This document shows, piece by piece, positions 1 through 30,855 of a DNA stretch of 32,000 bases. This stretch comes from Candidatus Iainarchaeum sp. Lineage in GTDB: Archaea; Iainarchaeota; Iainarchaeia; Iainarchaeales; 0-14-0-20-34-12. The stretch is taken from NCBI GenBank assembly GCA_030649345.1, contig JAUSKK010000054.1, positions 1 to 32,000 on the forward strand. The letters run 5' to 3'. The notes below the pieces were generated by a model. The model was not told where the DNA came from. It saw only the letters and a program-made list of their open reading frames with translations, and searched no databases. Each line of letters opens with the position of its first letter. Position 1 is the first letter of the stretch. Made by a program: the position numbers and the translations under genes.

Positions 1-3000
1 GGTGTCACCATTAATGCATTGGTCTCTGGGCTCTTGTGTACATTGAATTCCTGTTTCTCCTGCACTAGTCATTAATCGTACTTTGACTTCATACGTGCCT
101 GCAGTTAAATCATTAAAATTAAAGTCTTTGCTGGAAGTGCTTACAACATTTCTGGTTTCTCTAATCGGTGATCCTGTTACTCCAACTCCGCTGCTGGTTA
201 CAGTTAATTCATAAGGTACTGCTGTTTCAATATCATTGTTGGATTTTAATTCAACTGTAATTTTTACATTATTGGTTCCAGTGATTGGAACTGCTTCTAC
301 TTTAGATACTGTTACATCTCTGGTGGTTGTAGATAATTCTTGAGTATTTCGTGAAGCTGTTCTTGAACTCGCTGGACAGCTGGCATTTCTTGTTGGTTGT
401 AATTCTTTTTCCAATAATTGAATTTTCTTTAATAATTCTATTGTGAATTGAGTTGAATCACAATAAATATTGTTTCTGTTTCCTTCATCGCATGAACCTA
501 AACCAATTCCAACTAATTGATTTCTAGCTTCTTCTATTGGATCAGGTATTGGAATTTCTACATTGGTTCCAGGAATTGTTGCAGTTCTAGTTGTTGAACC
601 AGTTACTAAAATGCTGTTCCATTTCCATGAATACAATACTTTAGGTGCTGCTTGGGTTCCTGTGCTTCCAATTCTGGATCCAATTCTGCAGCTTTCCAAT
701 CCCAAAGGAGTAGGCAAAGCTTCTTCTGGTTTGAATGAATTGAATTGGACTTTTATTTTTTCAAAATAAGATTGTTTGTCTTTAATTTTTTCTTGCAAGT
801 AAGCTTCTGTTATTTCTGTTTGAGTTGGATTGTCTTTACAGATTCCTGAACTAATTCCTTCAATTACATTATTTCCTGTTTCTTTGCTTTCTTCTGAAAT
901 ACTTTCACAATAAATATTTCGAATTTCTGTTCCTCCAACTTTTAAAATTCCTTTCAATGGAGTGAATGGATCCACTTGTTTTACATTGCCTGTATTTCTG
1001 AATTGGATTTCAAATTCATGCAATGGTTTTCTAAAGTCTGCTGGATTTGGTTTTTCTTTAGCTGTTCCAACTGCAATACTAATTCCATCAAAGGGCGGTT
1101 CGTCTATGAATCCAGTTGGATTATTGGTGTCTGGGATAGTTGCTAGTTCTGCTGCCAATAATTTAAAGTGTGCATTGCTGTCTAATTCTGGAATATCATT
1201 TACTATGACTGCTTTGGTTACTTCTCCTTCTCGGTCTGAAAATAAATAAGTTGTTGCTCCAGTAATTGCTCCTAAGCCAGCTCCAGCTAAAGGATTGGTT
1301 ATTCCGGCTCCAATTAATCCGCCTACGCCTCCCAACATGCTTCCAAATCCATTGCCTAATTGCTGTAAACCAAATCCTGAATTTTGTGCTCCCAATCCTT
1401 GGAAACCAGTTGGATTTTTTGACTGTAAATTAGCTAAAGTAACCAAACCTTGTCTGGCTCCAGTTGAAACTAAAGGTTCAGTTGCTGGGGCTGCTGTAGC
1501 TCCTGGAGTTTCTCCAACACATTTGTTGGCTGTACATACATTACTAGCACACCAAGTAGCATCTTGGCAGTCTTGGCCAGCTCCTAAGAAACAATAGAAT
1601 TTTGTGTCCGCAATTGCTGCTTGTGTGGCTCCTGCTCTTTTAGTATAATCTCCTTGTGGTGAAAAATTTATTTTTGAAATACATTTTAAATTAGCTGAAC
1701 TACTGGGATCACTACATTTTGCATTATCTGCTGAAATCCACCATATTCCACTTGTTTCATGGGGTGTATTTTGACATTCTGCTTGTAATTTTGCTGGTCG
1801 TGTAATCGTGCCAGGTGGACTTCCCCCAGTTGTTGCTATACAAACTCCGCTAGTACAAGTTGCTCCAGTTACACAAGTGTCTCCTGTGTTACAAACTGTG
1901 CCAATAGGTATATTTGTGCGTGCTGCTGGTCCGCCCCCTGGCAATCCTGTTCCTGGTAGTACTTCACAAAAAGAATCTCCTGCGAGTGGGTCGGAACATC
2001 TTCTGCCTGTAATTGATTCACATTCTTCTTCTATTTTGGTTGCAGTTCCAGTTGTTCCGCAAGTTTCAGTTATTAATTTTCCACCTGAACAATATTTTTT
2101 AGTTTGGCCGGCAGTAACTGTGCTCCCATTAATTTGACAGGTAAATTCTACTGAAGTAATTTCTGCACATTTATTTGTTGAAGAATCACAATAACTTGAA
2201 GCACATTCTGAATTATTTGTGCATGCTTCACCAGTTGCTTTTGGAGTTCCTGGCACTGCAATTGTTTTTTTACAAATATTACTTTCACAGGTTAAATCTT
2301 TTCCACAGTCTTCTTGTTTTGCACAAGCTTCTCCAAGTTTTTTAGTTCCTGCAGGTGGAGCTGTTGTTCCTTCTTTGACTTCTTGACATTTTCCGTCTTT
2401 CCATTCTGCGTTTTTGAATTTGTCACATTCTGCATCTGTGGTTGCAGCTGCAATAGCTGCTGCTCCGCCTAAAACTTTAGCTGTCTTGCTTCCGAATGAT
2501 CCAGCTAAGCCTGTCATTCCGCCAATTCCTGCACCTAAAGCCATGCGAGTACCCAAACAACTAGAGTCTGCTTCTCCGGATGCAATGCCTGCAATACTAG
2601 CTCCAGCTGAACCGCCGGCAATAATTCCTCCAGCAATCGCTACTCCGCCACCGACTCCAAAGCCGCCTAATAATCCTCCGACTAACATTCCTCCAGCCAT
2701 TCCGCCTAAAGAATTCCAGCCAAAGCCTCCACTTTCTTTATTACTCCAAAAACAAGAATTGTCGTAATGTACTTTGAATTGTTGTTCTTTTTTCACACAT
2801 TTATTAATGACTTTAGCTGTATCGAACGCGTCAAATGGTGTTGCTGGATCATCAAATACATCAAACTCGTATCTGGATAATTCAAAGCATTCATCGCCTG
2901 TGACTCTGACTCTTAATAATTTGCTTTCTCTGTAATCCAAAAATCCTGCCCCGCGAGCCAATACTGTAATTTGGTATTGTCCAGAAGTTTGACTCGGGTC

Positions 3001-6000
3001 TGTTAAAATTGTAAACATTTGTTTGTCTGTGCCTTGCAAGCTGGCTTGTTTTGTACTCAAATCTAATTCACTTTCAAATTTGAAGTCTACTGTTGCTCCG
3101 CAGTTTTTGGTTTCAATTTCAAAAGTAGTTTCTTCTCCTTTTTTGAGCTTAAAAAGATCTCTGTTGTATCGGATACAGTCTCCTAAACTGACTACTCCAA
3201 TTTGGGTTGTTAAAGAATCGCTTAATTCTTGTACACTGGCTGAAGTTGGATTTTCTGCTTTAATTTCAATAGTAGCTTCTCCTAAACCAGAGACTCCGCC
3301 GTCGGGTGTAAATGTTAATATTGCTTCAGTGCGCGAGTCTTCCAATACTCTGGGATTTACTAATTTGAAATAAGATTCGCGTAATTCAACTGTATCATTT
3401 CCAATGGTTAAAGAATAATTTCCTAATTTGTTTCCTTTCCAATGAACTTGAGCCTGCAAGTTCTTTAATTCAATTGGAATTCCTTCGATTGTACAATTAT
3501 TTTCAACTCTTAACTGCAAGCTTACTGGTTGTCCTTCTGTGGCTGCATCAGTCCAAGAATCTTTATCTACATTTAAGCATGCTGGATTTTCTACTTCTCC
3601 ACCAATTCCTATATTAATCAATACAGGTGTTTCTGTAATCCATTGTTCTCCTAAAGCACTTGCAATAATTACTAAATTTCCTTGCAAGTCTACGGGTGAA
3701 TTTAACTGTAATCCTAAATCGCTTAAGGCTAATCGTACATCAATATTCACTGAACTTTTTGCACTAATTTCTCGGCCAGTTAATTGACTAAAAATATATG
3801 CAATAGCCTTGGGTTGGTCAATTAATCCTTTTAAGTCTCCGCGTAAATCTACAGTATCAATGGTTACTCCAAATTCTGTTGCATTTCGTACATTGATAGT
3901 TCGAGTATTTTCTTTGATTGTTTTTGGATTCAAAGCATACCCCAATCTTTCCGGTGTAACTTTTACAACTGTAGTGTCTGCAGTTAAATCAACCACTAAA
4001 GGCTTGTAGTCTGGCTTTACTAAATAAAGTTGGATTGTTTCTCCGGGTCGAATGGCTGGCAATCGAATTCTAGCAATGCCCAATTCATTACTGGTTTCTG
4101 TAGTTGTAGCAATTATATTTCCGAATCTGTCTTTTACATAAACTTGTGTTCCTTGAACTTCTACACTGGTTCTTTTGTTTTTAATTTTCAAAACTAAAGT
4201 TTGTTCTACTCCTGTAGACAAAGTTGGCAAATCTTCGGAGAATGAAGAATTTTCTTTTTGGAATTCTATAGTAAATTCTTCTCTGGCCAAAACTTGTACA
4301 TTCAATACTTTACTGTATACAATTCTATTCGCTGATTTTAATTGCAAAGTTACTTGAGAAGTTGAAGGTTGTTCTGTGAGTAAATCAATTTCTCCAGTAA
4401 TTCTTGAATTTGGCTTTACATCTCCAACCAAGTCTGTAAAGTCGGAATCAATTCCATCAAATCCAGTTAAACCTCGAGCATGTGCTAATTCTCTTCCTGT
4501 AACATCGCGTACTTTGTATCCTAAAATACTCGAAGTTTCAGTGGGTTCAGCTATTCTGATTTGTGCTCCAAAAAAAGAATCTCTTTCACTTTCAGAAGTA
4601 TTCACTAAAGTAAATTTGAGTTTGTATTGTCTTCCAATATTTGCACTAAATCCATTGTTGGCTGAAACCATTAAATCCGATTCAGTGTCTAAAGCTGTAG
4701 CACTAAAGCACCAAATTCCAATACAAGTGCTTTCTTCTCCTGTACTGAATTGTTCTTCATTGGTGGCTGCTCGTAAATCTGCAAAGCTAGCTGTACTTGC
4801 AAAGCTTGCATCAGATGGCACTCGTACTAAACTTGTTCCTTCTTGAGCCCAAGCTCTCCAGTATAAAGATAATTGTTCATCCAATCCAGCAGTTTCTTTG
4901 ACTTTGAGTACCACATCTAAATTCATTAATCCAGTAAATGTTTGAGGATAAACAATATTCACCCATTTGCTTCCGTCTTTGCTTAAATTGCTTGAATCTT
5001 CCAACAATGCCAAAGCATCTGGTCTGTCATGCAAACTAGTTCCTTTCCATAAACTGGCTCCAGCTGGAACACTTACACTTTTCACAAACCATGGATCTGT
5101 TTCCATTTTTTCCCCTGGGCTAGTGCTGGCTGTAGGCACTCCAGTTCTTGCATGCAATCCAATTTGAGTGTAAATTTTATTGGATGGAATTCGTATTTGG
5201 AATCTTGCAGTATATTCTTCTCCAGGTGTAACATTTTGGACTCTGGTTCCATCTTTAAATAATCCAATAAATTTAGCTTGTAAGTCTCCGGAAATAATTT
5301 CTGGTTCTAATACAACAGTGTGTGTGCTTAATTCTGCTGGATTAATTTCAATCGGCTGAGAAATATATCTGGTATACGAAACACTTCTGCTGGGGTCATT
5401 AAAATTGCTTAAAATATAAACTTTGGTTCCGCCCGGAATAGTATCAAACAAAATACTTCCATTATTATCTGTTGGAGTAAATCCTTGAATAAGTTCATTC
5501 GAGTAAGAATCTCGTACACTGACTAAAGCAAAAGGTACTGCATGTCCGTCTTTATCTTGGACATTTACTTGCAAACTTCCATTCGGAATTTCTAAAACAA
5601 CAGTATAAACAATTTCTCCAGCTCTATTTTTTTGGAATTCTTGTACATCACTCCATCCGCTTGCTAAACCTTTGAATGCAAATACTTTATAGGTTCCATT
5701 ATCTACTGGAACAAATTTAGCAGCACCATTCACATCAGTAATTAATTTATCCGGACTTCTGGGTACAGCAAATCCTTGGCTGTCAAATAATCCAACCACT
5801 GCATTGGCAATTCCTTTTCCATCCGAATTTACTACTTTTAATTTTAAAGTTGCACATTCAGTTCCAATACATTGTTCTAAATTAATTCTTGTAACAGTTT
5901 CTCCGGGCGCGACATTAATAGGTCCTTTAGGTTTGTATCCATCCTTGGTTAAATAAACAGTAAATCCAGTTGTTTTGTCTACAGCAAATTCTGCAATTGC

Positions 6001-7140
6001 ATTATTGTCTAAACTTGTAGTTCTAAATTCTCTTTGATTGCTTCCATCAAATAATTTTACACTCACTCCTTCCAAAGCTCTGTTGCGTGTATCCAATGCT
6101 TGTATTTTAATTCGTCCAACTACATTTTTTTCCAATTCTAATTGAACAGTTTGAGTTCCGTTGGCAGTAATTTGTACAATATCACTGGTTTGACTGGAGT
6201 ATTCTCCTGTGCCATTGCTTTGCACACAATAAGTTCCTGCTGGAATATTAAACGAAACTTGTCCGGCTGTAGAATATTCTACACTTTCATACAATCCAGG
6301 GCAAGCAGCAAATCCATTGTCTGCTTTAAATAAATTTACAGAAATACTTTCAGTGGTTAAAGGTCTTTGCAGGCCAGCAGGATCTTGTGCTGTTAAATTT
6401 ACAATTAATGTTCCGGTGTTTGGAATATCTTCAGCCAATAAAATTTCTCCGCCGTCTGCAATCGGTTGTCCATCAACTCCCAAAAATCCAGCGACTGCAT
6501 TGACTGTTGCCCTTAGTTGTCCGCATTCTTCTGTTTTTTCTACTTCAAATCCATCAAAAGGCTGTATTTGATTGTAAATCGTTGCAGGAGCTGTATTAGA
6601 TCCAGAGCAAGAAAAAGTTACAGTTAAAGGAACTCCTGTTAATAATTGCCCGTTATTTTTTACATAAAATTTAATGGTTGTTCCAGTACTTTCTGGAATT
6701 AAAACAATTTCGCTTTGCAAAGATTGTTCTACAACTTCAATTCCTGCAATAGTATTGTATCCTGTTTTAGTTACTGCATAATTTACTGAAGTTCCTTTGG
6801 GTACTTGAATTTTTTCAGTAATTCCTTCAGCATTGGTAATTTTTGTAATTGGTTCAGTTAAACCATCGTACGAAAAAGTTACACTGGCTCCAGCAATAGG
6901 ACTGCCTTGGCTGACTGCTTTCAAACTATAGTCTACTGTATTTCCTGGTCCTAAAACTGAAGCAATTAAGAAGACTCCTAAAATAAGAATTAAAACTAAA
7001 AATACTGCAAAACTTGGAACAACTCTGTCAATGGGTTCAATGACTTTATAGATTGGGATGCGGGCATCAATTTTATCTAAAAAACCGTACCATTTTTCTT
7101 CCAACTTGAAATAAAACTCTTTTAAAGCTTCAAAAACCAT
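1..7140 (-). CDS. Giant membrane-anchored surface protein, paralog 1 (5'-complete; C-terminus runs off the left edge; 2380 codons in window)
   Basis: ATG at 7140-7138 with GAGGA 7 nt upstream. The track lists no terminated minus-strand ORF starting here, so the frame (codon first bases at multiples of 3) must stay open to nt 1. Hand translation gives MVFEALKEFYFKLEEKWYGFLDKIDARIPIYKVIEPIDRVVPSFAVFLVLILILGVFLIA..., the same N-terminal motif plus TM helix as the two complete giants. Hand-translated stretches at 5820-5641, 3540-3421, 2769-1261 and 471-441 are all in frame. They show a beta-sandwich repeat (GKGIANAVVGLFDSQGFAVPRSPDKLITDVNGAAKFVPVDNGTYKVFAFKGLASG) and paralog matches. The + strand ORFs at 563-6571 are antisense shadows. 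Confidence 0.85.
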   Translation of the reverse strand, partial: MVFEALKEFYFKLEEKWYGFLDKIDARIPIYKVIEPIDRVVPSFAVFLVLILILGVFLIASVLGPGNTVDYSLKAVSQGSPIAGASVTFSYDGLTEPITKITNAEGITEKIQVPKGTSVNYAVTKTGYNTIAGIEVVEQSLQSEIVLIPESTGTTIKFYVKNNGQLLTGVPLTVTFSCSGSNTAPATIYNQIQPFDGFEVEKTEECGQLRATVNAVAGFLGVDGQPIADGGEILLAEDIPNTGTLIVNLTAQDPAGLQRPLTTESISVNLFKADNGFAACPGLYESVEYSTAGQVSFNIPAGTYCVQSNGTGEYSSQTSDIVQITANGTQTVQLELEKNVVGRIKIQALDTRNRALEGVSVKLFDGSNQREFRTTSLDNNAIAEFAVDKTTGFTVYLTKDGYKPKGPINVAPGETVTRINLEQCIGTECATLKLKVVNSDGKGIANAVVGLFDSQGFAVPRSPDKLITDVNGAAKFVPVDNGTYKVFAFKGLASGWSDVQEFQKNRAGEIVYTVVLEIPNGSLQVNVQDKDGHAVPFALVSVRDSYSNELIQGFTPTDNNGSILFDTIPGGTKVYILSNFNDPSRSVSYTRYISQPIEINPAELSTHTVVLEPEIISGDLQAKFIGLFKDGTRVQNVTPGEEYTARFQIRIPSNKIYTQIGLHARTGVPTASTSPGEKMETDPWFVKSVSVPAGASLWKGTSLHDRPDALALLEDSSNLSKDGSKWVNIVYPQTFTGLMNLDVVLKVKETAGLDEQLSLYWRAWAQEGTSLVRVPSDASFASTASFADLRAATNEEQFSTGEESTCIGIWCFSATALDTESDLMVSANNGFSANIGRQYKLKFTLVNTSESERDSFFGAQIRIAEPTETSSILGYKVRDVTGRELAHARGLTGFDGIDSDFTDLVGDVKPNSRITGEIDLLTEQPSTSQVTLQLKSANRIVYSKVLNVQVLAREEFTIEFQKENSSFSEDLPTLSTGVEQTLVLKIKNKRTSVEVQGTQVYVKDRFGNIIATTTETSNELGIARIRLPAIRPGETIQLYLVKPDYKPLVVDLTADTTVVKVTPERLGYALNPKTIKENTRTINVRNATEFGVTIDTVDLRGDLKGLIDQPKAIAYIFSQLTGREISAKSSVNIDVRLALSDLGLQLNSPVDLQGNLVIIASALGEQWITETPVLINIGIGGEVENPACLNVDKDSWTDAATEGQPVSLQLRVENNCTIEGIPIELKNLQAQVHWKGNKLGNYSLTIGNDTVELRESYFKLVNPRVLEDSRTEAILTFTPDGGVSGLGEATIEIKAENPTSASVQELSDSLTTQIGVVSLGDCIRYNRDLFKLKKGEETTFEIETKNCGATVDFKFESELDLSTKQASLQGTDKQMFTILTDPSQTSGQYQITVLARGAGFLDYRESKLLRVRVTGDECFELSRYEFDVFDDPATPFDAFDTAKVINKCVKKEQQFKVHYDNSCFWSNKESGGFGWNSLGGMAGGMLVGGLLGGFGVGGGVAIAGGIIAGGSAGASIAGIASGEADSSCLGTRMALGAGIGGMTGLAGSFGSKTAKVLGGAAAIAAATTDAECDKFKNAEWKDGKCQEVKEGTTAPPAGTKKLGEACAKQEDCGKDLTCESNICKKTIAVPGTPKATGEACTNNSECASSYCDSSTNKCAEITSVEFTCQINGSTVTAGQTKKYCSGGKLITETCGTTGTATKIEEECESITGRRCSDPLAGDSFCEVLPGTGLPGGGPAARTNIPIGTVCNTGDTCVTGATCTSGVCIATTGGSPPGTITRPAKLQAECQNTPHETSGIWWISADNAKCSDPSSSANLKCISKINFSPQGDYTKRAGATQAAIADTKFYCFLGAGQDCQDATWCASNVCTANKCVGETPGATAAPATEPLVSTGARQGLVTLANLQSKNPTGFQGLGAQNSGFGLQQLGNGFGSMLGGVGGLIGAGITNPLAGAGLGAITGATTYLFSDREGEVTKAVIVNDIPELDSNAHFKLLAAELATIPDTNNPTGFIDEPPFDGISIAVGTAKEKPNPADFRKPLHEFEIQFRNTGNVKQVDPFTPLKGILKVGGTEIRNIYCESISEESKETGNNVIEGISSGICKDNPTQTEITEAYLQEKIKDKQSYFEKIKVQFNSFKPEEALPTPLGLESCRIGSRIGSTGTQAAPKVLYSWKWNSILVTGSTTRTATIPGTNVEIPIPDPIEEARNQLVGIGLGSCDEGNRNNIYCDSTQFTIELLKKIQLLEKELQPTRNASCPASSRTASRNTQELSTTTRDVTVSKVEAVPITGTNNVKITVELKSNNDIETAVPYELTVTSSGVGVTGSPIRETRNVVSTSSKDFNFNDLTAGTYEVKVRLMTSAGETGIQCTQEPRDQCINGDT

Positions 7141-7260: not shown

Positions 7261-7749
7261 TTATTTTGCTAAATTTAAGGTTATAATAGGCAAGCTGGGA
7301 ATTAAGAATTCTAAACCAATTGCCAATATTATTGCAACTAGTAAAATTAAACCAATTTTTTTAATTTGAGTTTCCAATCTGGTATTTTGCTTTAAATCTT
7401 GCTGAATCCAGTAACCCAATTGCATTCCAGCATAACACGCAATCAATAAAGGCAAGACCCGAATTAAATAAGTTAAATTTCCAGCAAAAGTATTTCCTTC
7501 ACTGATTCCAAAAACCAACAAAACTAAGGGTGCTAAATATCCTTGAAATAAACTGCTTAATCCAAATACTCCTAAAACCAACAACGCATTGTCCAAGAAA
7601 TTGAGTTGAGTGAGTTTGATTTGGAAATCAAATTGAATTAAGTTTGTGAATATGGCTAGTACTGCAATGGCATAAAACAATACTCCAATGAGCAAGTATA
7701 ATCGTGTGACCAAGCTTTGAGCTGTATTCTTTTCTTCAATTAAACTCAT
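7261..7749 (-). CDS. Small polytopic membrane protein, family not recognised
   Basis: 162-aa ORF in the track with 4-5 hydrophobic helices (LYLLIGVLFYAIAVLAIFTNL; ALLVLGVFGLSSLFQGYLAPLVLLVFGI; LIRVLPLLIACYAGMQLGYWI; IGLILLVAIILAIGLEFLI). An AAGCTTTAAATAAAAG box sits 17-32 nt upstream of the ATG and there is no SD, so the transcript may be leaderless. Confidence 0.75.
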   Translation of the reverse strand: MSLIEEKNTAQSLVTRLYLLIGVLFYAIAVLAIFTNLIQFDFQIKLTQLNFLDNALLVLGVFGLSSLFQGYLAPLVLLVFGISEGNTFAGNLTYLIRVLPLLIACYAGMQLGYWIQQDLKQNTRLETQIKKIGLILLVAIILAIGLEFLIPSLPIITLNLAK

Positions 7750-7924: not shown

Positions 7925-8260
7925 TCATTCACTTTCCAATAGTTTGACCAGATTTTGAATTATTTGTTTTGTTTTTTGTTCTTTTGTATGCCCTGCTTTA
8001 TATAAAATAAGAGATTGATCTGCAGTAAACAATTTATTGATTCTTACATTGCTGTTTTGCTTAAGTGTTCCTTGTGCAAATTCTTTTTCTGACAAAGGCA
8101 CTGCATAACTGTCGCTTGTTTCTTGGCTGGTGATTTGGCAGAGAATTAAATCGTCTCCTTTTAATGTTTGAATGACAAATGCAGGACGTTTTTTTGTTGT
8201 AGATAAGTCAGAAAAAGGAAATGGGACAATTACAATATCTCCTTTTACAAATCTTTCCAT
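7925..8260 (-). CDS. mazF: MazF/PemK-family type II toxin (mRNA interferase)
   Basis: 111 aa. MERFVKGDIVIVPFPFSDLSTTKKRPAFVI matches the PemK/MazF hallmark (GDIv.v.FPfsd...KkRPalVl). The gene overlaps the upstream antitoxin gene by 16 nt and ends in TGA. Confidence 0.9.
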   Translation of the reverse strand: MERFVKGDIVIVPFPFSDLSTTKKRPAFVIQTLKGDDLILCQITSQETSDSYAVPLSEKEFAQGTLKQNSNVRINKLFTADQSLILYKAGHTKEQKTKQIIQNLVKLLESE

Positions 8261-8523
8261 GCTTGATCTTCCTTTTTAGACAGCCACTCTTTGGCTAATT
8301 TTTTTTCGCTTAATATTGCTGAGCTCATTTTTTCATTGAAACTATTTGTTTTTCCAAATACTGCAGATGCTACTTCAGATTCTTTTTTTATAATAATTTC
8401 ATTATTCCTTTCAATTAAAACCAATGCTTGTCTTCCGTTTAAGTTCAAGTCTTGTCTTACTTCTTCTGGAATAACTATTTGCCCACGGTCGCTCATAACC
8501 ACAGACCTAATACGTACATTCAT
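8245..8523 (-). CDS. mazE: AbrB/MazE/SpoVT-family antitoxin
   Basis: It has the swapped-hairpin motif SDRGQIVIPEEVRQDL near the N-terminus and a C-terminal tail ...AKEWLSKKEDQAWKDL typical of AbrB-type antitoxins. I prefer ATG 8523 (MNVRIRSVVMSDRGQ..., 92 aa) to the track's GTG 8604, because TATA-like A/T boxes lie at 8541-8570 inside that extension. Confidence 0.85.
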   Translation of the reverse strand: MNVRIRSVVMSDRGQIVIPEEVRQDLNLNGRQALVLIERNNEIIIKKESEVASAVFGKTNSFNEKMSSAILSEKKLAKEWLSKKEDQAWKDL

Positions 8524-8540
8524 ATCAATCAACTCAGTAA

Positions 8541-8570
8541 GTATAATATGTTTAAACTTATTTAAATAGT
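8541..8570 (-). promoter_or_regulatory. Candidate mazEF promoter (TATA-like boxes)
   Basis: The minus strand reads ACTATTTAAATAAGTTTAAACATATTATAC, 18-47 nt upstream of ATG 8523. Assigned by position and A/T composition only. Confidence 0.3.
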
Positions 8571-8620
8571 TTTGCGTGTTATTGGAGTATCTGGATGTAC
8601 TCACTAGTTAAAAATTAAGA

Positions 8621-8759: not shown

Positions 8760-8960
8760 ATGTCTGTGATGCAAGCTATTCCAGCAAAATTAACTTCGAA
8801 ACTGGTTAAAGAAATGGATGTTTTGGTAAAAGAAGGATTGTATTCCTCTCGGAGCGAAATTTTGAGAGATGCTGTTCGTCAGCTAATTTATAAAAAACAA
8901 TTGAAGCAGTTAACTCAGGCTGTTGAAGAAGATATTGAATGGGGTTTGCATGGCAAATAA
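8760..8960 (+). CDS. Ribbon-helix-helix (CopG/Arc/MetJ-type) antitoxin
   Basis: 66 aa. AKLTSKLVKEMDVLVKEGLYSSRSEILRDAVRQLI has the beta-strand/helix/helix pattern of RHH antitoxins. There is a GGTGG SD, and the stop overlaps the downstream PIN start (ATGGCAAATAA). Confidence 0.85.
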   Translation: MSVMQAIPAKLTSKLVKEMDVLVKEGLYSSRSEILRDAVRQLIYKKQLKQLTQAVEEDIEWGLHGK

Positions 8961-9456
8961 AGAAACAGCTGTTTCAGATACTGGCCCAATTTTGCATTTA
9001 TCTTCGATAGATTCTATTTCTACATTTAGTGTTTTTTCTAAAGTTTTTGTTTCTGAGATTGTTTTGTTTGAATTAAAACAGAATGATTTTAATTTTTATT
9101 TTTTTAAGAAATATAATTTTACAAAACTTTTTTTGAATCCTGATTTTAGACGAAAGTCTAAGCTTTTTCTTCTGGAATACGGTTTGCATTTAGGCGAAAG
9201 CAGTACTTTGGCTTTGGCTTTGCAGGAAAAAATTGAGTTATTTTTAACAGATGATTTGGATGCCCGGGAGACTGCAAAACGTTTGGGTTTAACTCCGGTA
9301 GGTTCTATCGGGATTCTTGTACGTGCATTTCGTGAAAAAATTTATTCCAAACAAGAAACTGTTCAAAAATTACTGGATTTAAAACAAAAAGCAAATTTTT
9401 TTGTAACTGATTCTTTAATTCAAAAAGCAATACTTATTGTAGAAAACTTCAATTAG
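8950..9456 (+). CDS. PIN-like (DUF3368/COG2405-type) nucleic-acid-binding toxin
   Basis: I moved the start to ATG 8950 (MANKETAVSDTGPILHL..., 168 aa), which overlaps the RHH stop by 11 nt. Acidic positions sit in VSDTGP, LGESST and LTDDLDA. GLTPVGSIGILVRA resembles the DUF3368 PIN-like family. The stop is TAG. Confidence 0.8.
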   Translation: MANKETAVSDTGPILHLSSIDSISTFSVFSKVFVSEIVLFELKQNDFNFYFFKKYNFTKLFLNPDFRRKSKLFLLEYGLHLGESSTLALALQEKIELFLTDDLDARETAKRLGLTPVGSIGILVRAFREKIYSKQETVQKLLDLKQKANFFVTDSLIQKAILIVENFN

Positions 9457-12500: not shown

Positions 12501-15500
12501 TTGTCCTTGTAATCTTGTTCTAATTTAGTAACTTTTGCAACTGCTTCTGCACTTTCTGTAGCTGCTTTTACTTTTAATTTAGCAATATCTGCTAAACTGG
12601 TTGCAGTACAATCAAATCCGCTATTTTTATTTAATGCTTTATCTAAATCATCAATTTCTTTTGCAATTCCTGTTAATCCTGTGGGTGGTGTTACCGGTGT
12701 TGCAGTTGTACATTTCAATTGTTCTCTGGCTGTTCCAATAACTAAATTAATTGATTTTTTGTTTTCGTCTCCAGGATATTTTGTAAGCAATGCAGTTTCT
12801 TTTACTTTCAATTGATCGCAGTTAACTTTTCCTGCTATAATATCATCTGCTAATTGTTTGAGTTCAGTTTTTAATTCAGTATCAGTTACTTTTTCTGCTT
12901 CTGCTTTAGCTGCTGCTCCAGCCAATGTTTTTCCAATCTCTGCTGGTGTTCCTGTGGTTGTTGCACAGAATGTATCTAGTGTTCCTGCTTTTTCTTGAGC
13001 TTCCACTTGTTTGACTGTAACTCCTTTATTCAATACTTTGACTTTAACTGGCAATTGAAGAATATCTGAAGTTCCTGGATTGTTTTGTGTTCTGGTAATT
13101 CTAAATCTGGCAGGCGATCCTGATTCAGATAAATTAATGACTGCACAATTTTGTTTCATTGCACTTCGATCAATGGTTAACAATCCATTGTGTCCTTCGT
13201 CTGTGACTCCGAATTGCAATTTGACTCCAGAATCATCTGTATAGCTTCCGTCTCCTTCGAGTGTTAAAAAGTCTCCAGTTCCACATACTGGACCGTCAGC
13301 ACATTTTCCTCTTTGAGCTACATCTGCTCTATTGCGTGGAATTTTCATTAAATAATCTGTAACTTGGTCACTTCTCTTGAATGCATAAGCATCCGAGCCA
13401 TTAGTGAAATGTAATTTGTCATTTAACCATCCGTCTCTGGCTGTGACATCAAAGTAATCTTGCTTGGTGCTCGACGTTTTTGCTCGCAAACAAGCAGCTG
13501 GCTGGATGTCAATATCTCCGGCTTGCATGACTGTGTCAAATACTCCGAATGCTTGATAGGGATCTACAAATTGTACATCAAATAATTCTACTTGAGGTCC
13601 AGTTGGAGTAAAGTAAGGTACTGTAACTCTTCCTGGACTAATAATACTGTGACCAAATCTGCTTGCACTGATTCTTAAATTTCCAACTTGCTGGTTGACA
13701 GAACCTTCAGTGAATCCAGGGAATTGATCAATCACTTGAGGATTATAGTAGACTGAGAAATGCAATACTTCGCTTCTGGATTGTCCTGATCCGCCTTGAA
13801 TAACTGCAGGTGTTGTATTAATGTAACTGATTAAAGGACAAGCTCCTAAATTATACAAACCTCGGCCTGGAATCATTTGTTGTCCAGGTAAAAGTCCTTG
13901 CTGTTGCCCTTGGAATCCTTGTTGTTGGAATTGCTGCTGGGCTGGTACTGTAACTCCGCAAGATTGGTTAGGCATTCGTAACATGTCGGATGTTGCAACT
14001 GGATAACATTCAATGTTTTGTAATCCAAAGGTTGGATCTAGTTTGTATCCGAAGTCTACACAATTGTTGGTAATTTTTCCTGTACTGGCAATACTGGTTA
14101 CAAAGTCTACTTGGAAAGTACTAGGACTTAATACTGGCTTGCACATTTGTTCTACTTCGCCAGCTCGCATAACTGTAGCTTGTAATTCGCCTAAACCAAT
14201 AAAGCTAGTTTCTGCTCCTAAGATTCTTCCATTAATACTTACAGGATATCTTCCAGAAAATATTGTTGGACTAACTGTTACTTCTGCTTCTTGTTTAGGC
14301 TGCAATTCTATTCCTGGTTTTCCTACTCTTAATCGTGAATCTGGTTCAATTTTTAATTCTACGGAAACTTCACAATTATTTCGTATCAAAAATTTTCCTT
14401 GACTGACTGGATTATTGGGGTCAGTGCAGGAAAAAGAATTTCCAAACAATGGACTTTGCATTCCATAGCCTTGTTGAGATCTGTAAGGTGAATCAAATAC
14501 ACTGGTTGGTCTATTGTATAAAGTATTTTGGTATTGATCGTATGGACTGTAATTGGCGCTGCCATAAATGGGTTGTCCTGTTTGTGTAGGTTGCGTTCCT
14601 ACTGTTCCTGCATATCTTCCGAAGTTGGTTGGATATTGTCCTTGGGGGATTCCTTGTCCACCGTACAATCCGCTAAATCTTGGGTCTGTCATTCCTTGAT
14701 TGAATCCAAAAGAATTCTGCATTATTCCAGAACCTAAATCATAACCACAAGTATACAATTGCAAGGGTTGTCGTTCAATGATTTCTACACATTGACTTAA
14801 TTGACTGACAATGGCGTCTGTTTCTAATTTGGCTGTTAATGTTTCTGGCCCAGCTAAAGTTTGATGGCTTCCGGAGATAATTAAAGTAGGCTTGGCTTTC
14901 GCACTTTTAATTTTTTTGTCTGGAATAAAAGTAAATCGTACAGTTCCTTCTTTGCTTTCTGGAAATACTTGTGCTAATTTTTGTTCTTGTTCATTTAAGG
15001 CTACTGCTCCTTTGTCTTTGAATAATTCGCTTTCAATTCTCATTTCACCTAAAGGTTGTGCTGTTTTCCAGTCAATTTTGGCTGAAATATTTTGCAAAGA
15101 AATTGGAATTCCTTCCACTGTACAAGAATTTTTGATTTTAACATCAATGCTTTCTTGAGCTGTTTCGGTTGCAAACTTCCAAGTACTTGGAGTAAATGTT
15201 AAACAGTCTGCTAAATCTACTTCGTTTCCTAAAAGGATTCTGAATTTTAATGGAATTCGTGCAGTCCAAGTTTTTCCTACTGTGCTATTTGTAATTTGGA
15301 AAGCTAACATTCCATCGATTGTTTGAGTTTCTGTAACCAATTTTCCTTTCTCCGTTAATTCAAATAAAATACTGGCATTACTGTCATGGTTTACATCTAA
15401 TTTGAGTCCTTCAATTTCTTTCAAGTTTTTAGCTTGAACCAATTCAGTGCTTTTAGAATCTAAAGTAACTTTGCTGATGGTTAAAGGCAAAGGAGTAATA

Positions 15501-18500
15501 TTCACTAAAATAATTTCCAAAGATTTGCTAGAACCTGATCCTGGAGTTAAATCCAATTTAAGTTCCAGGGGTTTGACTGCAACCAAAGTTTCATCGATTT
15601 TGATTTCTAAATTATTGGCTTTGAATGAATTCTTTTTAACTTCAATTTTCAAAATTGAATCTACATTGGGTGATTCTAGTTTGAATGCAAATATTCCTTC
15701 AGAATTGGTTGTGCCTTGAGCTACAATTGGATTAATGCTGGCAATAACTTCTGCATTGGCTATAGGCTGGCCTGTTATATCTGTGACTTTAACTACAATT
15801 GGATTGTCTACAAATGGAATGATTGCAATGGGCAATACTTCAATTTTAAGTTCTGCTGCAGGCAATACTTCTATTCCCAATGCATGCGTAAATGTTTTTT
15901 GCTGTCCGCTGACCAAACTTAATTCTAAAGGATTGAATCCTTCTTTGGTTGCTTCAAAATCTAAAGTTCCAGTAATTTGTCCGTCTTTTTCTAAGCTTCC
16001 GATTTCTAAATTGAGTTCAGATCCATTTCCTGTTCCTGTAACTTTTCTTCCTTGAGCATCTGTAATATTGTATCCTTTCAATACAATTCCTGCAGTTTCA
16101 TTTACAATTTGAAGTTGTGCATTGGCCAACAATCCTGTGGTTGTTTTGGTTAAAGTAAAATGCAGTCTATAATTTCCAGTAATGCCTGCACTGTAGGAAT
16201 CAATGACATTGCTTTTCAGTCTGGTTGAAACATTTTCTATTTGTAAAATTTTACAAAATCCTTGAGAACATAAATTACTAGGCCCGACAGTATATACTTG
16301 AACTTTGGCTTCAGCATACAAGTTTTGTTTTTGTCCGGTATTTTCTTCAGTTCCTAAACTATCATCTCTTGGATCTCTTGTGTAAGTATTTCCTTTGATT
16401 CCATAGCCTCTGTACAATACTTGGACTACGTCTCCTTGGACTGCTTCGGGTTGAACCAAGATTTCTGCTTGAACTTCAAATACTCCAAAAGCAGGCAATC
16501 CATTTCTGTTAATTGTCCATTCTACATTAGCCCATTTACTATCTCCTGTAGTTAATTTTGAATAATCTGTAGCAGTATTATTATTGGGAGTATAAGTTGT
16601 TCCTTTTTTGATTACGCCTATGCTTAATACTTCTCGGATCAAAGAATTGTCTTCATCCAATGCTGTGGTTGTTCCTTCTTGTTCTCTTCCAGTTCGCAGG
16701 TGTACTCCTACAGTATCTAAATTGCTTCCTTGGGGTGCCAATACTTGTACTGTTGCTAAATATTTTCTGCCTGCACTGACACTATTTTGAATTGTTTCTC
16801 CTTCTAATTCTAAATTTTTTAATTTTACAGTTAATCCAGAAACATCTTTTTCCAATTCAATCAAGCGTGCTTGTAAATTAGCAACAGCTGCATTCATTGG
16901 GACTGTAACATAGGGTAAAAATTCGTCGGCTTCAATTACAAAAAATACTTGTTTGTCGGCTCGAACTTGTGCAGTGACTTTTCCGTCAATATTGGAAGTT
17001 AATTCCTGCAATGTTCTATTGGTTCCTTTTTCCAATACTTTAACCAAAGCACCTTGAACTGCTTGTTGTTCTGCATCCAATAAACTTAATTCAATGGCTG
17101 TAGTTCCAATGGTTAAGCTGACAGAAACTTCTTTAATTTCGCGTTCTCTTACTGTAAATTCTGTACTGGCTTTTCCTTCAAATCCTTGTTTTAAAACAAA
17201 AACATAATAATCGCCTGGAACAATATTCGTAAATTCAACTCGTCCATCTGTTCCAGTAGTCAATTGTGCTCCGATGGGTGTATCTTGAGAATCTTTTAAT
17301 CGAATTTTTGCATTCTCTACTGGCTGTTGGTGTTCATCTACAACACTTACGACCAAAGCTTGAGCATTGACTACACTGACTGCTTGCAATGAAATAGAAT
17401 ATTCTTGTGCTTGTGCTCTAACATTATTTTGGGTTGCAATATTGTATCCTGCTTTATCCACTTCCAAAGAATACGTTGTACTGGCTGGAACATTTAACAC
17501 AACTTGTCCAGCTGTATTCGTATAAGCTTCATACGGTTGTGATGCTCCAGTTTTTAATTTAACCAAAGCTCCAGCAATAACTGTTTGAGTTGTGCTGTCC
17601 ATTACTTTGACTTTAATTTCTCCTAAAGTAGTTGTTTGTAATACTGCAGTAAATGAAATACTTGTTTCAGCTCTCAATACTCTGGGTTCGCTGGTATAAT
17701 CTTCGTATAATCCGTTTCCGGAAACTACAATATAATATTCGCCTGCATTAATTTCTGTAAAATTTACTGCTCCAGATTCAGAGGTTACTTCAGATGTTTC
17801 AATTAAGTCATCGCGATCTGAACTGGTTCCATTGGTATTCATTAATTGTACGCGTACTTCAGAAACAGTATTGCCTGTAGAATCTTCTGCTTGAACTGTT
17901 ACACTTCCTTTCAATACTTCATCTTGTGCTAAAAAGATTTGAGGCAATGCTTGTTCTAAACTAACTTGTTGTCCGGAAACATTGAATCCAGTAATATTGT
18001 CGACCAATAAAGATCCGCAGTTGCTGGGAATATTTTGTACATTGGCCAAGCCATCTTCGACTGTAACAGTAGAAGTATAAGCTGCACTTGCATTGGCACA
18101 ACTAAAAGTTGCAGTTACACTGGTACTTAATACTGCACTGCCTTGCATAAATTGAACTGTTTTGTTGAGTAAAGTAATTTCTTTTCTTAATCGAATGGTT
18201 TGAGTGTCTGCTTGAGTTAAAGCTGAATAGTTTTGGGTTTGTGAAACAAATCCTTCTTTAGAAACAGTTACTGAAAAATCTTTTTGCAATGGAACTTTTA
18301 ATTCAAGAATTCCTTCTTCATTGGTGTTTGTAGTGGTTGTTTGTTCTCCGACTGTTAAAGTAATTTCTGCATTTCCTAAGGCTGTTCCTTCTTCAGAATA
18401 AACACTTAAACTTAAAGCTGTCTGGCTAGGCACCAAGACCATGAACAAGCCGGCTAGAATTAAAACAAGTAAAAGAACTGCAATTGGAAAACTTGGAATA

Positions 18501-18762: not shown

Positions 18763-20184
18763 TTATGGCCTGTTTTCGCAAGTAAATGGTCCACTAGGCG
18801 CTCCGTTTGTTTGACAATTCCAGTGTGTATTTGGAGTAAATCCTTGAGGCAAAATATCCAATGGATTACTTCTCATTTCTATTTTGTATTCTGTATCCAA
18901 TAATTTATTCACTTTGTATAAATCATTTTCTTCTTTGATTCCAACTTGTACTCTTAAAATATTAATTCCTGCGCATTGTGCACTTCCAGTTCTATTGTTT
19001 CCATAATAATTTTCTGCAGTTGGAGTATTGGATACTTCGGGAGTAATTTTTATTCCAACTTTGCTTACGCCTACTGTACATTCTCCTGTGCTAGCATCCA
19101 ATGCAATTCCAAAATCATTTCCTACTCCTTCAATTGGAATATTTTTGGTTTGAATTTGTGCTTGTACTTTTTGACAAGTTTGAAATTCAGTGTATTCATG
19201 CAAGGCATTGTTGGCAGAATTTTCTGCACTGAATTGAAATTGAATTGGATTGCCGCGAACACTGGGTCCAAAAGTAACTCCTGCATTGGGTGCTCCAGCT
19301 GAACTTTCTCCAATACAGGCATTGTTTCCAAGATTTTGTTGTGAAACTATTGCAGAATATTTATCGCACGTATTTGGAATGCAGGCTCCCAAAGCCCAAG
19401 TGTCTAGTTCTCCTCCAGTTCCAGAAAAGTTTTCATTCATGACTCCGCTATTGCCTTGTGGATCTGCAATTGCTCGAGCATACGTTAATGCTTTAAATAT
19501 TCTTAACGGAACATATATTCTGACATCATTGTCCGGCAAAATGGGATCTTTTAATATTCGTCCAGTGCTTTTGTCTTCCACTACAATTTTCGGCAAATTT
19601 TCTCGGTCTGTTGGAGTTAATGAAGATAATTTTAAGTTTACATAAAATGTTCCAGTCGGGCATTCGGTATCTTTATCTTCTCCTAATTTTCCAGTGCATT
19701 CAATGACTTCAAAAAATTTATTTTGTTGATCAATGGGCAAGGTTGGATCCGGCAAACTGTTTTGTACAATGGTTCTCATGGAGTTTCTGAATCCTTCAAT
19801 GTTTTCTGCTTTAATGGAATAGGTTGAAAACGAAAAACCAAATCCTTGATATAATGCAATTAAGAAATTTGCAGCAGTATCTGCAAAAGCTGTTCTTCCT
19901 GTAGTGGTTCCAAAAGTTCCGTTGGCAAAATCATTCACCAATAAATCCCAGTTATCCCAGTTGGTTACAGTGAATACATTGTTGGGGTCAGATAAATATT
20001 CATGCATTTGTTTGCGGATTCCGAAATTAAAAATTTGAATAGCGTCAGCTCTTGTTAATTCAGCTACACTTTCCAGTCTGGATTGTTCTTGGATGTCTGC
20101 AATAATATTCTGCGTATTGTTTTCGGTTTGAATCATGGTATTGACTAAGACTGCAGTTAATACAATTAAAATCATGCCTACCAA
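18763..20184 (-). CDS. Secreted/anchored Cys-rich protein with a type IV pilin-like N-terminal hydrophobic segment (true start probably upstream at 20217, see findings)
   Basis: 473-aa ORF in the track, TTG start. After the N-terminal helix (VGMILIVLTAVLV) comes a polar helix NIIADIQEQSRLESVAELTRADAIQIF, then a region of about 400 aa with 14 Cys residues, mostly falling into short-spaced pairs (CTGKLGEDKDTEC, CIPNTC, CQTNGAPSGPFTC). The in-frame codons between the TAA at 20220-20218 and the TTG read I-N-S-K-A-F-N-L-F-T-A. Confidence 0.8.
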   Translation of the reverse strand: MVGMILIVLTAVLVNTMIQTENNTQNIIADIQEQSRLESVAELTRADAIQIFNFGIRKQMHEYLSDPNNVFTVTNWDNWDLLVNDFANGTFGTTTGRTAFADTAANFLIALYQGFGFSFSTYSIKAENIEGFRNSMRTIVQNSLPDPTLPIDQQNKFFEVIECTGKLGEDKDTECPTGTFYVNLKLSSLTPTDRENLPKIVVEDKSTGRILKDPILPDNDVRIYVPLRIFKALTYARAIADPQGNSGVMNENFSGTGGELDTWALGACIPNTCDKYSAIVSQQNLGNNACIGESSAGAPNAGVTFGPSVRGNPIQFQFSAENSANNALHEYTEFQTCQKVQAQIQTKNIPIEGVGNDFGIALDASTGECTVGVSKVGIKITPEVSNTPTAENYYGNNRTGSAQCAGINILRVQVGIKEENDLYKVNKLLDTEYKIEMRSNPLDILPQGFTPNTHWNCQTNGAPSGPFTCENRP

Positions 20185-20310: not shown

Positions 20311-20784
20311 TTATGGTTTAGCTTTAGGCTTGTTTTTGGTCAATTGTCTTCTTTTTTCCTTTTCTGGTTCTTTTAAGTAATTTTCTGAAATCATGACTTT
20401 TTCTCCAGCTTCTATTTCTAAGTTTTTTCTAGCATCTCCTGCAATGGTTCCTCCTTTGACTGCAGCTATTTTGTTTTCAAAAAATCCTTGCGCATTTTTG
20501 TTTTTAGCAATATGTGTAATGGAAGCTTCGCCTAACATTGTAAAGATTAGTTCTAAATCGTTCATATGATCTCTTAGATTTTCTTTTTTTAATTCTTTGA
20601 ATTTTTTGTATTCGTCTACAGTTTTTCCGAAAGTAGCTTTTGAAATTTCGTTAGTTAGTATTGCAAATTCTTTTCCTTCATTTACTTTTCGATTTTTCCA
20701 CTCATCCGTTAATTCTTGTCGTACTGCAATTCCGCGAACTCTTTTCTCAATCCATTCATTGGAATATCCTTTTTGTTGATACAA
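20311..20784 (-). CDS. C-terminal fragment of a split Bro-N/DinD-like (DNA-damage-inducible protein D family) gene
   Basis: KGYSNEWIEKRVRGIAVRQELTDEWKNRKVNEGKEFAILTNEISKATFGKTVDEYKKFKELKKENLRDHMNDLELIFTMLGEA matches, from memory, the conserved C-terminal half of DinD-like proteins. The only available start is a TTG directly abutting the upstream TAA, in the same frame. Confidence 0.7.
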   Translation of the reverse strand: MYQQKGYSNEWIEKRVRGIAVRQELTDEWKNRKVNEGKEFAILTNEISKATFGKTVDEYKKFKELKKENLRDHMNDLELIFTMLGEASITHIAKNKNAQGFFENKIAAVKGGTIAGDARKNLEIEAGEKVMISENYLKEPEKEKRRQLTKNKPKAKP

Positions 20785-21174
20785 TTATTTCATTCTTTTT
20801 TGTGCCAATTCTGGATCTTGAATTTCCTGCACTCTTTCATATCCAACTTTTGCCAGCCATAGTTTGAAGGGTTCTGCTTTCGGAGAAAGAATGGATTGAA
20901 TGATTCGAAAAGCACCTTCTGTATTGACGCAGTTTGTTTCTCTTTTTTTGCCGTCTGGTGCGAGAAGTTCAAGTGGGGTACAAATTGTACCCCAGTTCGA
21001 ATCCAAAATTGGGCCCCGGTTGCGCATCTTTTTGATGTACTGCTTGGGGTCTGAACTCTCTGTTAAAATGACCACTGTGTCAAATATAGAAAACCACCAT
21101 TCATTCTTATGCCAAACTTTTCGTATTTGTTTTCCTTCAAAAATAGCAATTGCATTTTCTTCATTCATTTTCAT
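20785..21174 (-). CDS. N-terminal Bro-N (phage antirepressor-like) fragment of the split Bro-N/DinD-like gene
   Basis: IAIFEGKQIRKVWHKNEWWFSIFDTVVILTES...TEGAFRIIQSILSPKAEPFKLWLAKVGYERVQEIQDPELA shows the Bro-N pattern (F....IR.....e.WF.a.Dv...L). It ends at a TAA in frame with the next ORF. The start is either ATG 21174 or ATG 21168. Confidence 0.75.
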   Translation of the reverse strand: MKMNEENAIAIFEGKQIRKVWHKNEWWFSIFDTVVILTESSDPKQYIKKMRNRGPILDSNWGTICTPLELLAPDGKKRETNCVNTEGAFRIIQSILSPKAEPFKLWLAKVGYERVQEIQDPELAQKRMK

Positions 21175-30791: not shown

Positions 30792-30855
30792 ACAGTTCAC
30801 ATTTCACTAAGTATAATTAATTAAACCTAATTCCCTTAATTAATCTAATGTTTAG

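Follow-up and report, generated by a model that had tools for sequence, protein, structure and literature searches.

The window analyzed here, a stretch of 32,000 nucleotides (nt) from the DPANN archaeon Candidatus Iainarchaeum sp. (GenBank assembly GCA_030649345.1, contig JAUSKK010000054.1, positions 1 to 32,000), has a G+C content of 35.8% and carries three giant genes on its minus strand, referred to as g1, G2, and G3. In the g1 protein, two glycine-zipper segments of marginal hydrophobicity bracket a hypervariable cysteine-rich insert, and the architecture of this junction, which is located between an immunoglobulin-like (Ig-like) stalk and a C-terminal module, is conserved in a family of Iainarchaeota giant proteins. 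Tentatively, and with a likelihood that we place just short of an even chance, the module is interpreted as a membrane-proximal glycine-zipper clasp or anchor presenting a variable, disulfide-rich extracellular cassette, which would probably set binding. The topology, helix packing, and binding role thus proposed are read from sequence features of the junction and its relatives.

Glycine-zipper segments and cysteine-rich insert of g1

No stop codon interrupts the reading frame of g1 between nt 7140 and the left window edge, a length of 2380 codons. The following features were assigned.

1..7140, minus strand: g1, giant surface protein of more than 2380 amino acids (aa), from open frame and translation; C-terminus beyond the left window edge
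7015-7140, minus strand: conserved 42-aa N-terminal motif preceding the anchor, recurring together with the anchor in G2, G3, and all homologs
6952..7014, minus strand: N-terminal membrane anchor, aa 43-63; best 19-residue sum of the apparent insertion free energy (dG), -5.2; Kyte-Doolittle hydrophobicity, 3.22
2725..2937, minus strand: conserved block A, aa 1402-1472, last stalk domain ahead of the junction (hidden Markov model [HMM], 88.5 bits)
2575..2712, minus strand: segment 1a, aa 1477-1522, expanded glycine zipper of 46 uncharged residues, Gly accounting for 19 (41%)
2443..2547, minus strand: segment 1b, second Gly/Ala-rich stretch, aa 1532-1566, from the sequence
1441..2442, minus strand: hypervariable insert, aa 1567-1900, 334 aa with 28 Cys, from the sequence
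2272-2334, minus strand: Cys repeat 1, aa 1603-1623, four-Cys unit of the insert
2167-2232, minus strand: Cys repeat 2, aa 1637-1658, four-Cys unit with the spacing C-x5-C-x4-C-x6-C
1840-1902, minus strand: Cys repeat 3, aa 1747-1767, four-Cys unit of the insert
1519-1578, minus strand: Cys repeat 4, aa 1855-1874, four-Cys unit of the insert
1255..1353, minus strand: segment 2, Gly-rich and hydrophobic with a central Asn-Pro (NP), aa 1930-1962; 12 Gly in 33 residues
301..1020, minus strand: conserved block B, aa 2041-2280, in the C-terminal module (HMM, 189.6 bits)

According to BLAST comparisons, aa 1 to ~1475 and aa 2040 to ~2360 of g1 are conserved, whereas the intervening stretch is not. 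Block B contains the hallmark motif YCD[AS]TQF and four invariant Cys residues, which form invariant columns in two alignments. In the three giants, Pfam detected CarboxypepD_reg/Ig-like domains, in the N-terminal halves only, and neither the junction nor the C-terminal module is represented by a Pfam model.

The Gly/Ala-rich hydrophobic region comprises aa 1470-1566 (97 aa), its two segments 1a and 1b being separated by the spacer EADSSCLGT, which includes Cys1528. Segment 1a is devoid of D, E, K, R, P, N, Q, and H, and its non-Gly residues are nearly all A, I, L, V, M, or F. Segment 1 contains 12 GxxxG motifs and 23 small-xxx-small-xxx-small motifs, and segment 2 contains 6 GxxxG motifs. Under the GxxxGxxxG definition of the glycine zipper (Kim et al. 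2005, cited in PMC10240207), which calls for GxxxG motifs in tandem along a hydrophobic stretch free of charge, both segments belong to this type; composition, GxxxG counts, and hydrophobicity identify them as true glycine-zipper-type hydrophobic stretches rather than hydrophilic linkers, in agreement with the initial annotation of this DNA. The distance from the N-terminal anchor, given there as about 1470 residues, is roughly 1410 and hence about right. Slippage of a DNA repeat was ruled out as the source of segment 1, the only repeat in the region being a 15-bp unit present in 2.1 copies.

Hydrophobicity was evaluated in 19-residue windows using the Kyte-Doolittle scale and summed Hessa dG values (in kcal/mol), both simple and crude scales; a stretch was considered transmembrane, i.e., Sec-integrated, at a Kyte-Doolittle value of at least 1.6 and a dG near or below 0. 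A clear membrane-spanning score was not obtained: segment 1a is borderline (Kyte-Doolittle, 1.82; best-window dG, +2.4 kcal/mol; each half, about +5.8), and segment 2 is sub-threshold (1.26 and +6.0 kcal/mol), compared with the dG of -5.2 for the anchor. At E ≤ 10, segment 1 showed no match to the Pfam glycine-zipper models PF13488, PF13436, PF13441, and PF05433, and the best Pfam match of segment 2 was Gly-zipper_OmpA, with 13.0 bits versus a cut-off of 27, the other glycine-zipper models reaching at most 8 bits.

The four Cys repeats described initially are indeed present between the two Gly-rich segments, and all peptides quoted in that annotation match the in-frame translation. The repeat spacing had been given as GxxC-x5-C-x5-C-x4-C, of which the four-Cys character holds and the exact spacing does not, since repeat 2 deviates; the unit, present in four copies, is more accurately described as G-x-x-C-x5-C-x4/5-C-x4/6-C. 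None of 20,000 shuffles of the insert reached at least four copies of a loose version of this pattern (mean, 0.07; maximum, 3). The number of Cys residues in the insert is even, those elsewhere in the ectodomain occur in near pairs, and the spacings within the insert lack CxxC metal-binding pairs. Sequons are as dense in the insert as in the ectodomain, at 0.9 per 100 aa.

Homologs of the insert are extremely rare. An exhaustive phmmer search against 1.84 billion representative proteins gave three weak matches, one of which is spurious; the other two proteins each contain five tandem copies of GxxCxxxx[DE]CxSxYCDxxxxxCA, adjoining a C-terminal anchor in a 670-aa protein and following a lipoprotein-type signal in a 380-aa protein. 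Both are unrelated proteins of extracytoplasmic type, with no name and no Pfam match. Word-indexed homolog searches, queried with the insert or with the 93-sequence family alignment, yielded no match. Sequence searches of the PDB likewise gave no match, whether the query was the insert, the entire module, or the profile of the family. In Pfam, aa 1451-1960 matched only the EB module at E ≤ 1 (E, 0.15), and a scan of the 485-aa module at E ≤ 0.01 was empty, with no profile match to the Dickkopf N-terminal Cys-rich domain (PF04706). At E ≤ 10, the module matched no NCBIfam family, including the Myxococcus cysteine-rich repeat (assuming that the library includes that model). Membership in the Dickkopf-N or myxococcal repeat families, as suggested initially, was therefore not supported by Pfam or NCBIfam. 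The g1 unit does share with both short, tandem, Gly-initiated four-Cys units with 4-6-residue spacings in secreted proteins, but it gives no Dickkopf_N or NCBIfam match even at permissive thresholds and was found in only two other proteins. The unit is an unannotated small module of disulfide type. The possibility that it is common to other giants was rejected, as an HMM of the unit found none in the other 139 giants.

Two classes of junction in the giant-protein family

A database search returned 18 relatives of g1 of 2000-2900 aa, all of them unnamed or annotated as "hypothetical," with named sources being Diapherotrites or other archaea. GTDB genomes were scanned with the motif YCD[AS]TQFxI, which yielded 141 confirmed stretches (loci). 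Nearly all of these derive from metagenome-assembled genomes (MAGs) of Candidatus Iainarchaeum or Iainarchaeota; two are located in the complete genomes CP010424.1 and CP064981.1, and a few come from Micrarchaeota or from MAGs with taxonomic labels that probably reflect mis-binning. The giant-locus contigs of L008, L018, L023, and L035 are found in public MAGs labeled Chloroflexi, Thaumarchaeota, or Falkowbacteria, labels that are probably binning errors. Members of the family combine the N-terminal motif LEDKWY..IPVY and its anchor with an Ig-like stalk, block A, the glycine-zipper junction, and a block B that contains YCD[AS]TQF and the four invariant Cys; these features define the family, and g1 displays every one of them. 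A literature search found no description of the family.

HMMs were built for blocks A and B; the block A model, derived from an alignment, matched 102 giants, and both blocks could be placed in 96. In these 96 giants the junction between the blocks measures 87-849 aa (median, 228) and falls into two classes. The first, termed the hairpin class, has short junctions and comprises 45 sequences, usually the giant encoded downstream of a g1-type gene. Following the sequence CDWxEA, its members show a Gly/Ala-zipper helix of 25-35 aa, a short uncharged turn, a strongly hydrophobic helix, and the motif (G)[DE]DPC[DE]. Polar-free runs extend up to 49 aa, many best-window dG values are below 0 (lowest, -5.0), and Kyte-Doolittle values reach 3.4, which is within the range of the N-terminal anchors (dG of -2.7 to -8.1 in close homologs). 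The flanks of the hairpin-class junctions are acidic on both sides, and the downstream module with its four invariant Cys is present in both classes. Among the 42 unique hairpin-type junctions, 24 end in a (G)[DE]DPC[DE]-like motif, whose conserved Asp-Pro could be a cleavage-prone or a structural motif, and seven (L041, L043, L047, L053, L059, L061, and L063) carry C-x-P-C exactly at the hairpin turn.

The second class, to which g1 belongs, has long junctions and comprises ~50 sequences. After block A, these junctions open with a conserved helix of 13-19 residues that follows the pattern (E/D)A(M)K(T)G-a-l-v-G-l-v-t-G-l-i-G-G-f; downstream of the insert come a second stretch rich in Gly, with (D/N)P at its end, and a GxxxGxxxGT..Y helix. 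GxxxGxxxG occurs in 19/50 windows after block A and in 25/50 before block B, compared with 14/1501 in the ectodomain background, so that it is enriched ~40-fold, and its register is kept across proteins of only 20-30% identity. Hydrophobic GxxxG segments are thus retained at both positions in orthologs, in contrast to the refuting case named in the initial annotation, i.e., that orthologs lack them. The zippers of the g1-class orthologs are weakly hydrophobic (dG, +5 to +15). Segment 1a of g1 aligns with their conserved GxxxGxxxGxxGG helix; its polar-free run of 46 aa far exceeds those of the 51 class members, whose median is 13 and whose longest is 19. In length it resembles whole hairpins of the hairpin class, but it is much richer in Gly and much less hydrophobic.

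The inserts of the g1 class are mutually unrelated and include acidic low-complexity, Pro/Thr-rich, coiled-coil-like, and Ala/Thr-helical types, the latter with a Cys cluster, as well as Cys-rich modular arrays. Nine have a Cys content of ~8-13%, and at least six of these are built from the unit C-x7-C-x5-C-x13-CC-x3-C, which is distinct from that of g1. Between close relatives, identity in the two flanks and in the insert was 89/92% versus 79%, 83/81% versus 61%, and 76/78% versus 46%; in one pair with 64-73% identical flanks, the inserts measure 522 and 143 aa. The inserts evolve fast, by gain and loss of whole modules. The close Iainarchaeum giants of L007 and L016 contain three and two copies, respectively, of a ~45-aa Cys-rich insert unit, C..EGYFCQGTV.HWKDSCGN.G.ERDCA..GG.CQNGNCVA, a difference in copy number showing that a module of the insert was duplicated or lost recently.

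Probable topology and possible functions of the junction

Strongly hydrophobic stretches are integrated by Sec stop-transfer into the producer's own membrane. Since the hairpin-class junctions reach the hydrophobicity range of the anchors, their integration into the cell's own membrane by Sec is expected, and the parsimonious topology, given acidic flanks and a downstream module whose four invariant Cys are common to both classes, is a hairpin that crosses the membrane twice and leaves both flanks of the giant outside. The g1 element had been thought to lie far out on a stalk; in the sister paralogs, this junction forms a hairpin of strong hydrophobicity (dG as low as -5), and because this would reside in the cell's own membrane, the g1 junction is more likely membrane-proximal.

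The insert itself is probably extracellular in the g1 class, which is suggested by its net acidity (41/50 inserts), a PKD domain in one insert (E, 1e-6), with domains typical of cytoplasmic proteins in none, the Cys content of ~8-13% in nine inserts, and, for g1, an even Cys count together with near-paired Cys elsewhere in the ectodomain, the extracytoplasmic relatives of the repeat unit, and the sequon density. The flanking domains are Ig-like sandwiches of the kind that serves as extracellular scaffold; Foldseek searches with the AlphaFold2 models of g1 and of the insert-less P0014 junction found such generic sandwiches, in the flanks, and no other fold. If the insert and both flanking domains are outside, segments 1 and 2 cannot both be single-pass and would have to be non-spanning, re-entrant, or complete hairpins.

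Taken together, the favored reading of the module as a membrane-proximal clasp would operate as follows. The ~1400-aa Ig-like stalk ends in block A and the C-terminal module starts at block B, with GxxxG helices always between them. In the hairpin class, a contiguous helical hairpin would sit in the cell's own membrane, whereas in the g1 class two short zipper helices, which may be derived from or interchangeable with the true membrane hairpin of the sister paralogs, bracket a fast-evolving, probably extracellular insert. In g1, the first zipper has expanded to hairpin length, and the insert is a 28-Cys disulfide-type region with four four-Cys modules. The zipper segments may pack helix-to-helix, be it with one another, with membrane hairpins contributed by giants or by small membrane proteins encoded in the same locus, or along the surface of the producer's membrane. 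Such packing would keep the junction near the membrane and expose the Cys-rich cassette as a ligand- or host-binding surface.

Several points weigh against this reading. The AlphaFold2 prediction for g1 aa 1381-2380, based on 12 sequences, had a mean predicted local distance difference test (pLDDT) of 45, with values of ~25-40 for both segments and most of the insert, the first Cys repeat (~83) being the only confidently modelled part of the module; in a model of the insert-less P0014 junction, the hairpin likewise scored only 30-41. Furthermore, the closest relative of g1 shows only 35% identity, and a metagenome scan for close relatives found none. The expansion of segment 1a is left unexplained by a clasp and could point to a gained membrane-active function. 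In addition, the hydrophobicity values depend on crude scales, and a binding role of the insert is something that we purely infer.

An alternative which we regard as unlikely is that the zippers avoid the producer membrane and instead enter that of a host or competitor cell upon contact, forming a pore or fusion-type anchor, with the Cys repeats as the recognition part. DPANN archaea are generally host-associated, and segment 1a, the expansion of which is unique to g1, is sufficiently marginal (+2.4 for the best window, ~+5.8 for its halves) that it could escape Sec stop-transfer yet partition into a bilayer. Glycine zippers permeabilize membranes in VacA, CdzC/CdzD, Tse4, and Tde1 (PMC10240207; PMC5380434); CdzC/D are held on the cell surface and act on contact (PMC5380434), and the Tde1 zipper permeabilizes target membranes (PMC10240207). 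The similarity to toxin and channel zippers noted initially holds to the extent that tandem GxxxG in an uncharged hydrophobic stretch is common to g1 and these proteins (in VacA and Tde1, to the N-terminus), but it does not extend to homology: no toxin or pore family was matched in Pfam, NCBIfam, or PDB. The g1 zippers are moreover located mid-protein, and there is no toxin/immunity context, with no immunity-like gene evident beside g1 and the neighboring MazEF pair being unrelated. The equivalent position in the family is occupied by a bona fide membrane hairpin, hydrophobic enough to lodge in the producer membrane, and the typical g1-class zippers, with 13-19 aa and dG values of +5 to +15, are both too short and too weak to span a bilayer.

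Slightly more doubtful still is the view that the Gly-rich stretches are neutral low-complexity linkers, relics of a lost hairpin, and that the insert is a tolerated, drifting spacer. The low-confidence coil that AlphaFold2 assigned to the segments, the apparently unlimited variation of the inserts in length (87 to 849 aa) and content, and the near absence of homologs of the g1 insert are consistent with drift. Contrary to this, the 46 aa of segment 1a combine almost exclusively hydrophobic non-Gly residues with a complete lack of charged residues, Pro, Asn, and Gln; the GxxxGxxxG register is conserved and enriched at low overall identity; and the inserts hold ordered repeats and folded modules (PKD, Cys-knot-like units).

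With a somewhat smaller probability again, the hairpin-length zipper and the orphan Cys cassette might form a contact-dependent device by which the archaeon recognizes a partner cell and inserts part of g1 into its membrane, thereby creating a pore, tethering the two cells, or initiating a cytoplasmic bridge, with the co-encoded giants and small membrane proteins as its base. Finally, a polytopic topology, in which segments 1 and 2 each cross the own membrane once and the insert forms a cytoplasmic loop with metal-binding Cys, appears quite improbable: the insertion point does correspond to the hairpin turn of insert-less paralogs, which would face the cytoplasm, Lys-rich stretches occur just past segment 1 in some homologs, and some inserts are coiled-coil-like, but the predominant net acidity of the inserts, the PKD domain, Cys spacings that lack CxxC pairs and match modules in extracytoplasmic proteins, a class segment 1 of only 13-19 residues with dG values of at least +5, and the ectodomain-like sequon density of the g1 insert all argue against it.

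The closest resemblance of a general kind is to the Glycine zipper 2TM or SlyB-type hairpins (PF05433, PF13488, PF13436, and PF13441), in which two short GxxxG-rich helices form a hydrophobic hairpin with membrane association and oligomer packing, a look shared by the hairpin-class paralogs and by the 46-aa segment 1a. They differ in that the elements described here give no significant profile match, are located between Ig-like domains inside an archaeal protein of more than 2000 aa, and, in the g1 class, are split by an insert of hundreds of residues. With respect to the overall protein, the Apilactobacillus Giant1-5 proteins and the Nanohaloarchaeota SPEARE proteins are likewise reported to be very large, tandemly encoded, Ig-like-rich surface proteins of symbionts with small genomes, in which segments that evolve fast are presumed to mediate contact between cells (PMC12863079; PMC6642349). 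They are unrelated in sequence, and the N-terminal anchor, the internal glycine-zipper junction, the YCDATQF C-terminal module, and the co-encoded small polytopic membrane proteins set the g1 family apart. Giant Ig-like adhesins, glycine-zipper hairpins, and variable Cys-rich cassettes are thus of already known kinds; new are the combination of these components and a junction with two states, either a membrane hairpin or a split zipper with an insert.

To our knowledge, little has been established about cell attachment in DPANN archaea or about their exchange of material with other cells, and we know of no cultured representative of the Iainarchaeota. The present work defines a conserved multi-giant locus and, within it, a precise junction in which zipper helices are combined with a membrane hairpin or, alternatively, with a hypervariable extracellular cassette, and this junction is an obvious candidate for the specificity-determining and membrane-interacting part of the apparatus. 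YCDATQF together with the junction provides a sequence signature for locating such loci in metagenomes, and the g1 junction supplies concrete constructs for topology, binding, and permeabilization assays.

Organization of the giant locus

The conserved order of the array is a giant, a ~500-aa protein, a giant, a ~150-aa polytopic protein, a g1-type giant, a giant of the second type, and five to six small polytopic membrane proteins. Over positions 1-30800, the window matches this order with G3, a 473-aa open reading frame (ORF), G2, a 162-aa membrane protein, and g1, G2 being orthologous to the giant found ahead of g1-type genes at other loci; the hairpin-type giant and the small polytopic proteins of this locus would lie past the left window edge. 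Two of the intervening genes are as follows.

18763..20184: 473-aa ORF of the giant locus, in a gene order shared with Iainarchaeota genomes (L001 and L002)
7261..7749, minus strand: 162-aa polytopic membrane protein directly upstream of g1, resembling by eye the L001 protein at the same position, with matching gene order

Further genes separate members of the array. Those between G2 and g1 comprise the pair MazF/MazE (7925..8604, minus strand) and, on the plus strand, a PIN/DUF3368-like ORF (8923..9456); those between G3 and the 473-aa ORF comprise a Bro-N domain gene (20785..21174) and a gene for a 157-aa basic protein (region 20311-21174). The MazEF, PIN, and Bro-N genes are of mobile-element type and interrupt the giant array. 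Searches for tRNA and Rfam features in the window found none.

The N-termini of g1 (7015-7140), G2 (18500-18628), and G3 (30660-30800) and those of their homologs share, directly ahead of the anchor, a motif of ~40 aa with the pattern ..LE(D/E)KWY.FLD..D..GIPVY.V.D.ID..VPSF, which is presumably cytoplasmic. G3 (window positions 22161-24170) also contains Gly-rich hydrophobic stretches, at aa 2211-2258 (dG, +4.4) and ~aa 2850-2880, with a helical Ala/Glu/Lys-rich region of ~590 aa between them; unlike the arrangement in g1, this pair is located downstream of the CDAKQ motif of G3 (~aa 1636). Low-complexity stretches of ~100 aa rich in Q, N, G, Y, and P, e.g., GQGIPQGQYPTNFGRYAGTVGTQPTQTGQPIYGSANYSPYDQYQN, are present in G2 at aa ~1300-1400 (14429-14731) and in G3 at aa ~1320-1420 (26541-26843), roughly at the position where the stalk ends in g1.

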